Assembly: GCA_000004695.1 (NCBI GenBank)
Contig: CM000155.2
Coordinates: forward strand, 1,440,001 to 1,504,000
Length of the DNA: 64,000 nt
Direction: 5' to 3'
Origin: Dictyostelium discoideum
Taxonomy: Eukaryota
Positions 56,951 through 64,000 of the stretch are shown here, piece after piece; position 1 is the stretch's first letter; each line of letters starts with the position of its first letter. Below the pieces are notes generated by a model. It was not told where the DNA came from and ran no database searches. It was given only the letters and a program-made list of their open reading frames with translations. Both the position numbers and the translations under genes were made by a program.

Positions 56951-56953
<3 letters not shown>

Positions 56954-58022
56954 AAATCATTTTTAAATAAAAATAAAAATTCAAAAAAAATAATAATATT
57001 AGATGATAATGATTTTTCAAAATATCAACAAAGATATGATTTACAAAATCAAAATATTGAAATAGTTAGTAGTCCACTCCAAAATATAAGATCACAACAA
57101 ATTAATGATGGAGTACAAATGTCAGGATCTATTCAATCTGATTTATCAAGTTCAGATAATTTCACAAGCAGTGGTGGATTTGGAGGTGGTGGTAATAGTA
57201 GCTCAAATACAAGTAATAGAAATAGTGACAATAGTACACAACGTCCATTAATGGTTGATATTGGACTAGAATATAAATATAGATTGGCATTGGAACAGAA
57301 TCCAAATGATTTTAAAGCATTAGTTAAATGGGGTAGTTTAATATATAAGAATATTAAAAATCAAATGGGTGGTAAACATGTTGATGTTTGTCTAATGGAT
57401 TGGAATGAAGAGTTAATACCAATACCACAAAATAATAATAATCATCATAATCATAATCATCATAATAATCATACAAGTGGTAATTTCACAGGAAACATTA
57501 ATAGTAATACAACATTAAGTAATTCATTCTTTGAAACTTTAAATTCATTTAACCTAAGAGAGCCATTATTTGATGTTTGTGGAAAATATCAATCATCATT
57601 ACAATTATCTGGCGGTAGTAATTTATTAAATATTCCTTTCTCAACTTTATTAAATTATAATCTTAATGAACAATTAAATATTTTAGTTAATAATTTAAAT
57701 AATTCATCACCATCATCATCATCATCATCAATAAAAACTAAAAATACTACATCCACAACTACAACTACAACAACTACAAAAAATTTAAATGATATTTCAA
57801 ATAATATAAATAATAGTAGAGTATTAAGATCAGTATCATTACCACCTGCACCACCTCCACCACCAACAGAAGATCCAAATTCACCATGGTCAGATCCAAT
57901 ATTATGGATGAAATGGGGTGATTGTTTATTTCTTTTATGTACATATTTAGAATTACCAATGTATAGAGCAACTTGTGAAAAATATTTTAAATGTATACAG
58001 ATTTTATTTAAACAACAAGAGA

Positions 58023-58053
<31 letters not shown>

Positions 58054-60625
58054 AAATCAACAAGATAAAGAAAAATTTGAAAAACAAAATAATTATAATA
58101 TAAAATTATTAGCAATTGTATTAAGAAAATGGGGTATTACATTAAGTAGATATAGTAGAAGAATGAAAAGTCAATTTTTAATGTCAGAATGGACAAGTGA
58201 TGAAAATATTCAAGTTGAAGAATTATGGAAAGTTTTACATAGTCAATCGATTCAATCATTATTGATAAGTAATAAAATATCGCCATCATTGGTAACACAA
58301 TATCATTTGGCTACGGCATATCATCGTCATGCAATAACATTGAATCAATTTGGATGTCAATCAAAAGAGGAAATCTATGGTTTAATTACAAATTCTTGTA
58401 AAATTTATTATGAAACTTTATTGGAATCATTATCAGATACATTCTTACAGCAACTACAACTTCAACAACAACAACAACCATGGCATGATATTGAATATTA
58501 TAATAATAATGAAATATTTAATGATCAATTTAAATCTAAATCATTAGAGAATTGGGGTAGAGCATTGGATGTTCAATTATCAACCAAATTAAATGATGAA
58601 GAGGAAACCATTGAGAAAGAAGAAGAAGATTTAAATTCAGTCGATGAATATTTAACAACATTTTCAAAATCAGTGTTAAAAGGTGTTACACCATCATTGG
58701 AAGGTGTGGTTTCATTATGTTTAAATTCAAAGCAAGCACTTCAATATAAAGCAATCAATAGTGTCTCTGTTTTATGTAGATCAAGTGAAATTGTAAAATC
58801 ACCAATTTACAATGAACTCATGGATCAAATGACCAAAGTTGAATCATTCGTTTCAAAAAGAGATGATGCTGAATCATTATTATCTCAACAAAAAACTTTG
58901 AAAAGTATGCCACCAAAATTACAAGCATACGTTCGTATGAGTGGTTTAGGTGAAGAAGAAATTATGAGAAATTTTGAAATTGCTTGGAATTCAATTTATT
59001 TCCTAACAAAAGATACAATTCCAAATCAACCAATACCACCAAACTATTATAGATCAAATAAAAAAAATAAATTAAAACAAAGACAATTGAATGATAGTAA
59101 TAATCAAGATGAAAAAGAAGAACCTGAAGAAATTAAACCACCTTTACTACCTTCAATTCATCGTACTAATCAATTAAATAATAATAATAATAATAATAAT
59201 AATATAAATAATAATAATATAAATAATAATAATATAAATAATAATAAAAATGGTAATAGTGGTGGTGAAACTCCATCACCATCATCATCTTTTGTTATTA
59301 CACCTTTTACATCAAATTCACAATCAAAATTTAATACACAAAGACAATTCCTCTCAAATTCAACTTTATTTAATTTATCTAGTAGTGGTATTTTTACTAA
59401 TAATAATAATAATAATAATGGTGGTTCAACTATAACTACTACAACAACCAATAATATATCACCAACTAAAACAAATGGTTGGACTTTAACTTTACCAAGT
59501 AAAGCACCAACTAGAAGAGCAACAGTTTCATTGATTAATATAAATGATTTAATTAATCAGCAACAACAAAATCAAATAAATTCTGTATCAACATTATCAC
59601 AAAATAATATAATATTAAATAATAATAATAATTTAGATAATAAACCAATTTCAAAATATATACCAAATTCAATTATTAGAACAACAGTTAATCCACCATT
59701 ATTATCAAGATGTGATGAAACTATATTTTCAAGTGGTACACCATTACCATTATTTAGGGATAAAATTAAATTGGGTACAGGTGCATTTGGAAATGTATTT
59801 TATGCAATTAGAAAATCAGATTCAAGTCCTGTTGCAATTAAAGTTTTAATGGAACGTACTAAAAAAGATAGTCCAATCATACCTGAACTCTATATTCATA
59901 GTGCTTGTAATCATTCAAATATTGTTACCTACATTGAATCCTATCTATGTAAAGGTCATGTTTGGATCATTTTAGAGTATTGTGATGGTGGTACAGTTAG
60001 AGATTTACTTCAAGCAACTTGTACTCCTGGTAATCCAAATAATTTACAATTGTTTGAAGAGACTTTAATCGCTTATATCATCACAGAGTTATTGGAAGGT
60101 TTGGTTTATTTACGTTCAAAGGGTATCATTCATAGAGATTTAAAGAGTAGAAATATTTTGTTAACTAGAAAGGGTAAAGTAAAGATTGCCGATTTCGGTC
60201 TCGCTACAACTTGTAGTTTAGGTCGTGGTAGAACTCGTATGTGTGGTACCATGGGTAGAATCGCTCCAGAGGTAATTAGAAGAGAACCCTATGACACCCA
60301 ATCTGATATCTATAGTTTGGGTTGTTTAATCATTGAAATGGCTGAAGGTACCGTTCCCTATGGTAAAGATTCCTCTTTGAAAGCATTATTCTATACAGCA
60401 ATCCATCAATATAAATTACCAAATCCTAAAAAGTATACAAAAGAATTTGTAGATTTCCTTTATCTTTGTTTAAATCCTGACCCTTTCAAAAGACCAACAC
60501 CTGAAATGTTACTACATCATACTTTCCTAAGTGGTGCTGATAGAGGTAAATCAATATTATTAGGTCGTTTTAAAAATCAAGATACAAGAAAAAATTTACT
60601 TTTGGATAATTTTGTTGCTTTTTAA
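56951..60625 (+). CDS. Serine/threonine protein kinase of 1224 aa. The catalytic domain is at the C-terminus after a long N/Q/S/T-rich region. Single exon.
   Basis: The kinase subdomains are 'LGTGAFGNVFYAIRKSDSSPVAIKVL' (GxGxxG plus the VAIK lysine), 'HRDLKSRNILL' (catalytic loop), 'KIADFGLA' (DFG) and 'GTMGRIAPEVI' (an APE-type activation segment, similar to STE-group kinases). The ATG at 56951 follows a ~50-nt A-run, and the stop is at 60623-60625. Confidence 0.85.
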
Positions 60626-60627
60626 AA

Positions 60628-60661
<34 letters not shown>

Positions 60662-60851
60662 ACCAAAAATAAAAGAAACTAATATTTAATTAAATCAATG
60701 ATCTCATTCTATTTTTAACTGGAGTTTTTTATTATTTTTTTTTGTTTTTTTTATTATTTTTTTTAGTTTTTTATTATTTTTTTTTATTATTTTTTTTTTT
60801 TTTTTTAGTTTTTTTAGTTTTTTTTTTTTATTTTATATTATTTTTTACATA

Positions 60852-61412
60852 ATGGATTTTATTATATCTTTTATCAAAAATTTATTTGGTTTTTTGACAA
60901 TTAAAAAAGTTATGATTTTAGGAGTGGAGAATGTTGGTAAAACTACTTTATTGTATAATATTTACAAATTTTATTCAGAAAATATAACAACAACAACATT
61001 ATCATCATTGCCAATACCAATACCAACAAATGGATTTAATGTTGAAAGTATTGTAATTGAGCAAGTTAAATTTGATATTTGGGATATTGGTGGTAAAGAA
61101 ACTAATAGGATATGTTATAGACACTATTTAACTAGTGAAATTGATTCAATAATATTTGTATTTGATTCGAGTGATATTAATTCATTGGAAGAATCAAAGA
61201 AAGAATATCAATATTTAAAAAATCAAATTAGTTTAAAAAATGTTCCATTTTTATTAGTTGCAAATAAACAGGATTTAAAACAACAAACAATTGAAATAGA
61301 TGAAATTTTAAAAACTTATTTTGATAAATCTTCAATTAATGAAACCATTTTAATGTCTCAAAATAATAATGATGATTTAATAAAGTGTATAAATTGGATT
61401 TTTTCAAATTAA
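60852..61412 (+). CDS. ARF-like (Arl) small GTPase of 186 aa, single exon.
   Basis: The Arf-family motifs are 'VMILGVENVGKTTLLY' (G1), 'TNGFNVESI' (the Arf T-x-G-F-N switch-I signature), 'FDIWDIGGKE' (DxGGQ-like G3) and 'LLVANKQDL' (NKxD). The acidic N-terminal amphipathic segment 'MDFIISFIKNLFGFL' is typical of Arf/Arl. Confidence 0.8.
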   Translation: MDFIISFIKNLFGFLTIKKVMILGVENVGKTTLLYNIYKFYSENITTTTLSSLPIPIPTNGFNVESIVIEQVKFDIWDIGGKETNRICYRHYLTSEIDSIIFVFDSSDINSLEESKKEYQYLKNQISLKNVPFLLVANKQDLKQQTIEIDEILKTYFDKSSINETILMSQNNNDDLIKCINWIFSN

Positions 61413-61620
61413 AGATAATTAATATTAATTTCCAACAAACAATCATTGAACCCTATCTTTTTTTCAACCAACAATCTAAAATATTATTTAAAAAAAAAAA
61501 AAAAATTAAATTAAATTTATTATAAAAAATTCAAAAACATTTATAATAAATTTTTCAATTAATTTTTTTATTAAACAAAAATTGAATATTGGGTTTATAC
61601 CTTTCCAAAAATTCACAAAT

Positions 61621-61621
61621 C

Positions 61622-61670
<49 letters not shown>
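61621..61670. repeat. 50-nt homopolymer T-tract (A-tract on the minus strand) abutting a GC-rich island.
   Basis: Visible directly. Confidence 0.95.
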
Positions 61671-61672
<2 letters not shown>

Positions 61673-61835
61673 GGTGGAGCATAAAAAAGGGATTGCAGAG
61701 GTCGGTAATGATATTTTGATTTGTCGTCTTAACCACTAGACTATTAAGGAAGTATCCATAAATTAGAATCGAACTAATGCTTACAAAGTGAATTTAATCG
61801 AAGTAACCCACCTACTCATGCCCTCAAGAAAACAA
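61671..61835. ncRNA. GC-richer island (~165 nt) with tRNA-like hairpins and Pol III-like T-run context. It is a candidate small ncRNA or tRNA-derived remnant, and it does not fold into a canonical tRNA.
   Basis: The minus strand contains a canonical T-arm, 'ATTAG-TTCGATT-CTAAT'. Immediately 3' is a canonical D-arm, 'GTCT-AGTGGTTA-AGAC'. A loop 'caaaTCAaaat' follows. The arm order is wrong for a standard cloverleaf, and I could not pair an acceptor stem. The island is flanked by T50 on one side, and 'aacccacctact' lies nearby. Confidence 0.25.
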
Positions 61836-62578
61836 TTCAATTATAATACCTTTTTTTCAACAACCAACTTTCTGATAATTTTAACAAAATAACATTTTTT
61901 TTTTTTTATTTTTTTTTATTGATATTTTATTTTGTTAATTATTTTAGAAATTGAATTTTCCTAATATCTGTATCATTGGTATTTGATAGTTTTTTTTTTT
62001 TTTTTAAAGTTTTATTTGATTAAATATAATGGTGATTTTCTGTGGGATCGATATCACCTAAAAATGATCAAATAAAAATATGGTTCTAATTCTTTAGATT
62101 ATCATTTTTTTTTCCTCAATTTTAATTATTAAACTTTTTTTTATTTGGTTTGTTTTTGGGTGTTGTATTTAATTATTGTTAATATTTATCTATTATTTTT
62201 TTAAAATTCTAAACATATATAATAATAAAAAATAAATACATTAATTTTAAAATTAATTTCTTTTGATTGACCGTTAATCAAAAGAAACAATGATTTACAT
62301 TGTAATCAATCACATAACTTGTAAACCAAAGTTTTTTAAAACAAATAAATAATAAAAAAAAAATAAATAAAAAATAAAAAAAAATAAAAATGTAAATGAA
62401 TATAAAATAATATTTTCTTTTTTAAAAAAAGGAACACCATGGATGAATTATTTTGAAGATAATATTTTTTGGAGATTTGATGTATGAACTATTTATTATT
62501 TATTATTTATTTTTATTTTTTATGTTTATTTTTTTTTTAATGTTAAAAACAAAAAAATTAAAATTCAACAAGAACAAT

Positions 62579-64000
62579 TTATTTCTTAGAACTAATACAT
62601 GATTTACATATTATTGTTTGGCCATTACTAGCTAACTGTTTAAATTTATCTTTGTCGATTTGAAAATCTTTTTTACATTTTGGACAGTTTAGTTTTTTAT
62701 CATTGCTTTTTTGATCATTTTGTTTGTTGGATTTACATGATTTACATATTATTGTTTGACCATTTTTAGCTAAATCTTTAAATTTATCTTTGTTGATTTG
62801 GAAATCATTTTTACATGTTGGACAGTTTAGTTTTTTATCACTGCTTTTTGGATCATTTTGTTTAGCTAATTTATCAGTTACATTTGAATTTGAATCGACT
62901 TGTTTATTGGATTTACATGATTTACATATTATTGTTTGACCATTTTTTGCTAAATCTTTAAATTTATCTTTATTCATATGGAAATCTTTTTTACATGTTG
63001 GACAGTTTAGTTTTTTGTCACTGCTGTCTGGATCATTTTGTTTGTTGGATTTACATGATTTGCATATTATTGTTTGACCATTTTTTGCTAAATCTCTAAA
63101 TTTATCTTTATTGATATGGAAATCATTTTTACATGTTGGACAGTTTAGTTTTTTATCACTGCTCTTTGGATCATTTTGTTTAGCTAATTTATCAGTTACA
63201 TTTGAATTTGAATTCTTTGAAGTATGACATGATTTACATTTTATTAGTTGACCAAGTTTCTTTAGTTCTTCATATTTGTCTTTGTTAAAATCAAAATTAT
63301 TTTTACAAGATGGACACTTTAGTGTTTTTAAACTACCACCATTTAAATTGGCTTGTTGTTGGTTTGAGTCTTTAGTTGGATTTGAATCTTGTTTTTGTTG
63401 AGCTGAATCGACGTATTGTTTTTTAGAATTATCATTTTTAATTTTTGATTCATCAATGGTGATGTTTTTCTTTTTTGTTTTTAATGACTCTTCTTTATTT
63501 AATTTATCACAGATCTCTCTAATGGTTCTAATCATTTCATCGGCCGATTTTCTGGCATCGAATGAAGTTGAGTTTTTAGCTTCCATTTCCATTTGATTTA
63601 AAGTAATTTGAAGTTCATCAACTAAATTAAAACCACTACAAATTTTTTTCAATTCTTTACAAGATTTTACAATATCATCGGTCATTTTATTCAAAGTGGC
63701 ACTGGCTAATTTCTTTGCTGAATCAAGATTGAGAATTTTTCCTGAAAATTCGGAAGAGAGTTCAGAGCTTTTTAAAAACTTTTCCTTCATATCTGTGAGT
63801 TCTTGCTCAACTGTCTTATTAACTTTAACCATTGTTTTTCTTCCATGATAATGAACATTGTAAAGGCACTTTGAAGGACAAATTTTGCAATTATTGGTTC
63901 CACTCATTGCTACACAACCTATGAATGCATTATCCCCTTTTGTTGATAGCTCTTCTAAGCCACCTTTTAAATGATAAAATTTATTAATAATTATTTAAAA
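62579..64000 (-). CDS. Partial gene (the 5' end lies beyond the window). It encodes a protein with a coiled-coil-like N-terminal region and ~6 tandem ~42-aa CxxC-(x20)-CxxC zinc-ribbon-like repeats.
   Basis: The tool ORF 62579..63907 has its frame open upstream to the window edge ('...GDNAFIGCVAMSGTNNCKICPSKC...'). The repeat unit 'KKLNCPTCKNDF(H/Q)INKDKF(K/R)DLAKNGQTIICKSCKSNKQND(P/Q)KSSD' occurs about 6 times. The underlying DNA is a ~126-160-bp tandem repeat (62640-63330) at high identity. I do not recognise a family. Confidence 0.55.

Follow-up and report, generated by a model that had tools for sequence, protein, structure and literature searches.

What does the tandem repeat at one edge of a stretch of Dictyostelium discoideum DNA encode, and what might the protein that carries it do with it? 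The stretch, hereafter the window, comprises 64,000 nucleotides (nt) of contig CM000155.2 (NCBI GenBank assembly GCA_000004695.1, positions 1,440,001 to 1,504,000 of the forward strand). An initial annotation, made from the letters alone, had read positions 62579-64000 as part of a minus-strand protein built from about six near-identical, zinc-ribbon-like repeats. We find that the repeats lie in the 3' exon of DDB_G0292334, a D. discoideum gene, and that this exon encodes five units, each with two CxxC pairs, at the C-terminus of a GTPase related to the GIMAP proteins. The array is a new instance of tandem small Cys4 zinc modules, on an unstudied GIMAP-like GTPase. As to what it does, we lean, on balance, towards a model in which this exon supplies the GTPase with a homogenised Cys4 zinc array that would serve as a multivalent tether to a polyanion, with RNA as the favoured ligand. 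Throughout, the window was treated as eukaryotic DNA and its bacterial-style list of open reading frames (ORFs) only as a guide; GC content is ~20% throughout its 64 kb, and its ORFs carry long Asn, Gln and Thr runs.

The last exon of DDB_G0292334 and its repeat array

Tandem Repeats Finder and a repeat search agree on a tandem repeat at the place and on the strand first proposed. Over 62596..63213, the former detects in-frame periods of 138, 180 and 318 bp with 91-93% matches and scores of up to 1075 (the 318-bp period has 1.9 copies and 92% matches). The repeat search returns five copies of a 121-nt unit, spaced by 138, 180, 138 and 174 bp, and a pair of 300-nt blocks (62596-62895 and 62914-63213) with 92% identity. 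All of the repeat periods are multiples of three. The repeats are also coding, as had been supposed: the minus-strand frame stays open to the stop and holds the CxxC pairs, which form five CxxC-x22-CxxC units, all in frame, with unit lengths of 46 and 60 codons (138 and 180 bp). These values correct the earlier estimates of about six repeats, a unit of 126-160 bp and a spacing of x20, as the motif of the units is C-P-x-C-K-x21-C-K-S-C. The description of the repeats as near-identical holds for units 2-4, which are 95-96% identical in DNA over a 102-nt core, and fails for unit 5 (81-86% identical to units 2-4) and unit 1 (70-75% identical to the other units). All 20 cysteines of the 248-residue tail fall in the CxxC pairs. 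The linkers between units, 14-28 residues long, are disordered and rich in Lys, Asn, Asp and Ser, in agreement with their initial characterization as K/D-rich. On the structural models presented below, the tail is five small Cys4 modules, each predicted to fold independently.

Between window positions 58000 and 64000, the DNA agrees with a locus (L002) of a Dictyostelium discoideum assembly at NCBI apart from 3 indels, with no mismatch. The product of that locus, P0006, is the 776-amino-acid (aa) protein of DDB_G0292334 (XP_629715.1; UniProt Q54DC6), which carries the database name 'AIG1-type G domain-containing protein'. The gene is already annotated in the reference genome, and its Pfam hits are already attached in public databases. 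Exon 2 gives the last two bases of the Cys316 codon, residues 317-776 and a TAA stop at 62579-62581 on the minus strand. The gene had been expected to run past the window on this strand, and it does so by way of an acceptor AG, an intron and an exon 1 that lies off the window; on L002, only excision of this 64-nt GT..AG intron reproduces P0006. Exon 1 (946 nt, beyond position 64000) encodes residues 1-315 and the first base of codon 316, and with them an AIG1/GIMAP-like G domain, which is outside the window. The protein thus consists of an N-terminal G domain, a conserved helical core with a Cys/His module, and a lineage-specific C-terminal tail. The features that fall on the window are:

62579..63963, minus strand: exon 2, the last exon of DDB_G0292334 (translation; exact match to the P0006 C-terminus; splice model on L002)
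63227..63316, minus strand: zinc unit 1, CPSCKNNFDFNKDKYEELKKLGQLIKCKSC (residues 532-561), the divergent first unit
63053..63142, minus strand: zinc unit 2 (residues 590-619)
62915..63004, minus strand: zinc unit 3 (residues 636-665)
62735..62824, minus strand: zinc unit 4 (residues 696-725)
62597..62686, minus strand: zinc unit 5, the last (residues 742-771)
62596..63213, minus strand: higher-order 318-bp repeat in two blocks (Tandem Repeats Finder)
63326..63478, minus strand: low-complexity K/N/Q/D/S linker from core to array (residues ~478-528; low predicted local distance difference test score, pLDDT)
63494..63811, minus strand: helical region, the C-terminal end of the conserved core (residues ~367-472; AlphaFold and substitution rates)
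63845..63963, minus strand: second half of the Cys/His module (residues 317-355: C332, C341, C344, C348, H353, H355)
63964..64000, minus strand: intron end, the last 37 nt of the sole 64-nt intron (GTAAGT...AAAAG; splicing checked on L002)

In each 318-bp block, a long linker precedes the first unit and a short one separates it from the second. Upstream of the array, the exon-2 product had been called coiled-coil-like. The AlphaFold model supports this only in part, placing four helices between residues 367 and 472 (367-381, 395-423, 429-446 and 450-472); the description misses a conserved Cys/His β-module that precedes the helices. That module is part of the family core and not of the repeat array. 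Profile matches from relatives stop near position 470-490, pLDDT is <50 over residues 478-525, and the linker segment varies among orthologues; the zinc array lies outside the conserved family core.

Two other readings of the exon were considered and rejected. A 442-aa bacterial-style ORF would begin at the ATG at 63907, the first in the frame, but the frame upstream of this ATG is open as far as the acceptor AG at 63964-63965 and the spliced product is P0006. An extracellular disulfide-rich repeat was discarded, as a signal peptide is absent and the N-terminus is a P-loop G domain. A tblastn search within the window revealed no second copy of the gene, the sole match being this locus.

Units across strains and species

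Aligning 23 units from six orthologues, we find that the only invariant columns are the four cysteines, with L4, K10, F13, K19, L23 and G27 near-invariant. The x2/x22/x2 cysteine spacing is kept by all units of D. discoideum and of 'D. cf. discoideum' and by two of the three D. purpureum units; the remaining D. purpureum unit has x23. The initial annotation had named a low-complexity artefact, with no conserved Cys spacing in orthologues, as the danger to its reading. Because the spacing is conserved in orthologues, the array is not such an artefact. Compared between strains, as had also been proposed, copy number is five in each of three D. discoideum strains, and the full series of Cys4 tail units is as follows:

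Three D. discoideum strains: 5 units each
Two 'D. cf. discoideum' assemblies: 6 and 5 units
D. purpureum: 3 units
Acytostelium subglobosum: 2 units
Relative P0011: 1 unit
Polysphondylium violaceum: 0 units, with a Lys/Asn/Asp-rich tail instead

The Cavenderia model breaks off in apparently unspliced sequence, so that its missing units are uninformative. A homologue search with the 250-aa array found no match and missed the known orthologues too, the query being repetitive and Lys-rich; a search with the 23-unit profile gave one match, at E 1.1, in a method that copes badly with Lys-rich repeats. With 0, 1, 2, 3, 5 and 6 units, the array is a clean, datable case of domain-array turnover in dictyostelids, to which a linker polymorphism of 14 aa between D. 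discoideum strains can be added.

This polymorphism lies in the inner part of the array. In strain AX4, units 1 and 3 are each followed by the long linker (..SNSNVTDKLAKQNDPKSSDKK). In strains FIR and FIW, the linker that follows unit 3 is short and lacks the 14-aa insertion; their proteins are 762 and 761 aa long. An ungapped comparison of the two 318-nt copies in AX4 gives 88% identity overall; over ~100 nt, from the long linker into the beginning of the unit after it, identity between the copies is 97-100% in 30-nt windows. Across strains and species, the first unit groups with other first units and the last with other last units; the inner units group largely by lineage or with positions mixed. 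Unit 5, taken as 32 residues, is identical in the three D. discoideum strains. In these comparisons, the end units behave as positional orthologues and the inner units as homogenised copies. A homogenised centre with diverging edges is what unequal crossing-over or gene conversion would leave behind, and we infer that the array grows, shrinks and is homogenised through both processes, acting between in-frame 138/180-bp units. The recent expansion or concerted evolution suggested at the outset is supported by these comparisons: the inner units are highly similar and unsorted by position while the end units are sorted, the ~100-nt near-identical stretch occurs twice in AX4, and the insertion is absent from two strains. 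Such repeat dynamics are usual for in-frame tandem repeats.

The ratio of nonsynonymous to synonymous substitution rates (dN/dS) between AX4 and FIR is 0.34 for the array, 0.18 for the G domain and 0.05 for the helical region, at a synonymous rate (dS) of ~0.12. The value for the array points to purifying selection, weaker than that on the core (0.05-0.3). As a separate observation, over window positions 58257..64000 the AX4-like and FIR assemblies (the latter at locus L001), both assigned to D. discoideum, differ in ~5% of nucleotides. Divergence of ~5%, together with this dS, seems more than a single species would show and is suggestive of a cryptic lineage.

Fold, GTPase core and possible ligands

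An AlphaFold model of a single unit, built on the 23-unit alignment, has a pLDDT of 84. In it, strands 2-5 and 12-15 flank the first CxxC and are followed by a helix (17-26), and the second CxxC (C32, C35) stands at the start of another helix (33-40). The β-hairpin and helix elements appear at all five units in the full-length model, separated by linkers with pLDDT <50. A zinc ribbon has both CxxC pairs on β-hairpin knuckles; the unit, in what is a model and not a solved structure, does not, and its predicted topology is treble-clef-like rather than that of a classical two-hairpin ribbon. Sequence profiles lean weakly to the zinc ribbon, and there is no significant fold match. The structural neighbours of the unit are all non-significant; the best are mostly treble-clef fingers (PHD, RING), and they include one lipid-binding FYVE domain (1dvp) and the rabphilin-3A finger. 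A PDB sequence search with the unit profile gave a marginal match to 6zxw_H, an uncharacterised protein of 60 aa (E 0.012), and a match to the zinc finger 7zok at E 1.7. The Cys4 zinc-ribbon or treble-clef site that had been proposed is supported by the invariant CxxC pairs, the weak Cys4 profile matches and the AlphaFold model.

The profile matches come from the array taken as a whole. DUF7836 (PF25206; cut-off 26.7), a family without known function, is the best Pfam hit to the array, with 48.6 bits for the exon-2 product and 44.4 for the whole protein; only positions 7-42 of its 59-position profile align. Zn_ribbon_4 (PF13717; cut-off 30.3) scores 35.0 bits with the exon-2 product and 27.5 with the full-length protein. 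The 250-aa array reaches 27.4 bits with TIGR02098 MJ0042_CXXC (cut-off 20.9) and 36 bits with the archaeal Trm112 profile (cut-off 77). Like the unit, the MJ0042 zinc ribbon has a CPxC knuckle followed by an aromatic residue and a β-strand, some 20 residues, and a CxxC; unlike it, the modelled unit has its second CxxC at a helix start and not on a second β-hairpin. MJ0042-type ribbons are usually single, N-terminal and prokaryotic rather than five-fold eukaryotic arrays.

A further candidate is zf_Tbcl (PF13451), the 'probable treble clef domain', which occupies the same C-terminal position in Acytostelium (two copies) and P0011 (one copy). Against a cut-off of 24, it scores 31.2 bits with the Acytostelium protein and 19.3 with the P0011 protein, and 21.2 and 26.4 bits with single units from these tails. 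The D. discoideum units gave no match to this profile, even at E up to 10, and hhalign of the D. discoideum unit against the orthologues' zf_Tbcl units returned a probability of 1.1% at E 0.047. The two have a layout in common (CxxC-x3-aromatic-x-aliphatic...acidic-Lys...aromatic...Gly/Asn...CxxC-basic) and differ in the spacing of the cysteine pairs, x24 in zf_Tbcl against x22 in the D. discoideum unit. On these alignments, homology of the D. discoideum units to zf_Tbcl is plausible. A literature search for DUF7836 and PF13451 found no paper on either. We consider the unit to be a predicted Cys4 zinc mini-domain, probably treble-clef-like and possibly a diverged zf_Tbcl, and have assigned it to no family.

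The GTPase that carries the array is recognized at residues 7-159 by Pfam AIG1 (PF04548; 36.0 bits against a cut-off of 27) and by MMR_HSR1. Its G1 (GETGCGKS, residues 11-18) and G3 (DTPG, 86-89) motifs are invariant in seven orthologues and near-invariant in 64 relatives. The usual GTPase G4 is T-(K/H)-x-D; the corresponding region here is of the LTNC type, which is the family consensus, and reads FTNCL in DDB_G0292334, without the Asp. By Foldseek, the G domain, modelled with low confidence, is best matched by GIMAP7, Toc34 and GIMAP1 (E 3.6e-6 to 1e-5), and a PDB sequence search with the full protein gave only marginal septin P-loop matches (E >=0.04). The AIG1 profile, the G1 and G3 motifs and the G-domain fold match are shared with the GIMAP/AIG1/Toc34 clade of septin-related GTPases. 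Unlike members of that clade, the protein continues from its G domain into a ~250-aa helical and Cys/His core without a Pfam family, and unlike GIMAPs it has a zinc-module array in place of a hydrophobic anchor. AIG1-like genes have been reported in D. discoideum (PMC12845241).

Residues ~230-490 are helical and strongly conserved, and in a Pfam search no family covers them. Within this core, the Cys/His module (residues ~300-355) comprises C305, C308, C312, H313, C316, C332, C341, C344, C348, H353 and H355; these positions are invariant in the seven orthologues, and most are near-invariant in the 64 distant relatives. The module is probably a binding site for two metal ions. A profile of the seven orthologues retrieves 3,326 cluster representatives at E <=1e-3, 345 of them at E <=1e-30, and nearly all align to profile positions ~5-475, that is, to the G domain and core. 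The G domain, the helical region and the Cys/His module together form a ~470-aa core that defines a large, so far uncharacterised family of eukaryotes, with members in Amoebozoa, Heterolobosea, euglenids, bdelloid rotifers and a tardigrade. The members with names, all annotated as hypothetical, are from dictyostelids, Pelomyxa, Phalansterium, Willaertia, Peranema, bdelloid rotifers and one tardigrade. Among 64 long members, the added domains include zf-CCCH (3), RRM (1) and KH (1), and also GYF, DnaJ and a Crinkler N-terminal domain; the zf-CCCH domains are N-terminal in those checked. The array carries little weight by itself: a model organism has a hypothetical gene, already annotated, that ends in tandem Cys4 zinc modules. 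It does, however, mark an unstudied GTPase family with ~3,300 representatives and a conserved ~250-aa core without a Pfam model. That core family, with its RNA-binding accessory domains in other lineages, is the more interesting object, although it lies mostly outside the repeat finding, and the genetic tractability of D. discoideum makes for an easy entry point to it.

The tail contains 57 Lys and 1 Arg against 26 Asp and 2 Glu, which gives it a net charge of +30 and an isoelectric point of 9.5; the contribution of each unit is +3 to +4, that of each linker +1 to +3. The Polysphondylium orthologue has a Cys-free tail that is still Lys-rich (+19). In the model we favour, each unit would bind one zinc ion via its four cysteines, and the basic, multivalent tail would tether the GTPase to a polyanionic ligand, where it would probably act as a nucleotide-dependent oligomer. 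RNA would be the preferred ligand, because zf-CCCH, RRM and KH are among the domains added in the 64 relatives; an acidic membrane surface would be the main alternative. The CCCH and RanBP2-type arrays that bind RNA provide an analogy, as they too consist of ~30-aa zinc mini-domains on flexible linkers and are multivalent. They differ from the tail in fold and in ligand set and have no sequence relationship to it; CCCH fingers do occur on other members of the same GTPase family.

Several points count against RNA tethering by a zinc array. The argument for RNA draws on five of 64 relatives, whose domains are different ones, plus charge, and the abundance of Lys is in part a matter of codon bias in a ~20% GC genome. 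GIMAP relatives are known for membrane scaffolding and not for RNA binding (Schwefel et al. 2010, as cited in PMC3417536). The DUF7836 score is a sum over five units, a single unit scoring 20.4 bits (positions 7-40 of 59). Single units likewise score 16.3 bits with Zn_ribbon_4, against its cut-off of 30.3, and 15.8 bits with TIGR02098, against 20.9; in the profile searches, no single unit of the array reaches any family's cut-off. The full-length AlphaFold model is poor overall, with a mean pLDDT of 58.8. Finally, a literature search found no paper on DDB_G0292334, and no experiment on the protein is known.

The same charge could instead direct the tail to acidic phospholipids (phosphatidylserine, phosphoinositides), placing the GTPase on an organelle or phagosome as an oligomeric scaffold. 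We regard this as unlikely, though deserving of serious attention. The G domain is nearest to GIMAP and Toc34, and GIMAP/AIG1 GTPases are described as intracellular membrane scaffolds (PMC3417536). The basic tail persists without cysteines in Polysphondylium, such that charge rather than fold may be what is conserved, and a FYVE domain and the rabphilin-3A finger are among the non-significant fold neighbours of the unit. However, a hydrophobic or amphipathic anchor as in GIMAPs is absent, a purely electrostatic tail would not require four invariant cysteines in every unit, and the relatives in the family add RNA-binding, not lipid-binding, domains. Small Cys4 fingers are often protein binders, and the units could be protein-protein modules that hold multiple copies of a partner (ubiquitin, or another GTPase) or cross-link GTPase oligomers. 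PHD and RING are the closest fold neighbours of the unit, and its profile aligns weakly to the zinc finger of the Myxococcus gliding motility protein X (7zok), which reportedly binds the GTPase MglA (PMC11135422). Yet none of the 7zok, PHD and RING matches approaches significance, no conserved hydrophobic surface patch has been shown, and the very high charge and Lys-rich linkers suit a polyanion better, which together make protein binding improbable in our estimation.

A neutral origin, in which the array is an AT-rich coding minisatellite that came to lie in frame at a gene's end by accident and whose units have no function of their own, deserves hardly any credence. Simple repeats are common in Dictyostelium proteins, lineages differ in unit number and linker length, the tail units are absent in Polysphondylium, and dN/dS is higher in the array than in the core, all as a minisatellite would have it. 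Against this, the four cysteines are invariant in 23 of 23 units, including D. purpureum units at 19-52% identity, dN/dS is well under 1, the fold of the unit is confidently predicted, and more distant dictyostelids retain Cys4 domains at the same place. As a long shot, the tail could be the part of an amoebal immune-type GTPase that recognises its ligand and evolves fast, sensing nucleic acid of foreign origin or the surface of a bacterium or endosymbiont. Sensing by the array would then trigger assembly of a GIMAP-like oligomerising switch, in a family that would be large, patchily distributed and given to swapping accessory domains (zinc arrays, CCCH, RRM, KH, Crinkler N-terminal).

Flanking sequence

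Convergent with DDB_G0292334, and separated from it by a very AT-rich spacer of ~1.2 kb, is a 186-aa ORF at 60852..61412 on the plus strand that belongs to the Arf family of small GTPases; its counterpart on L002 has Pfam Arf and Ras hits. The intergenic DNA includes a perfect 48-nt poly(T) run (61624..61671). On the other side of the Arf-family ORF, 60624..60846 holds a 55-nt A-rich tract and then a 122-nt T-rich tract; the run and the tracts are typical of Dictyostelium intergenic sequence. The 1224-aa ORF at 56951..60625 on the plus strand has a C-terminal protein-kinase domain (HRDLKSRNILL, DFGLA) and long Asn, Gln and Thr homopolymer runs. In strain FIR, a pol ORF of a long-terminal-repeat retroelement, encoding protease, reverse transcriptase and integrase, is found ~1 kb upstream of the orthologous gene (L001, 399-3976); at the AX4-like locus, L002, two other genes occupy the position of this pol ORF.

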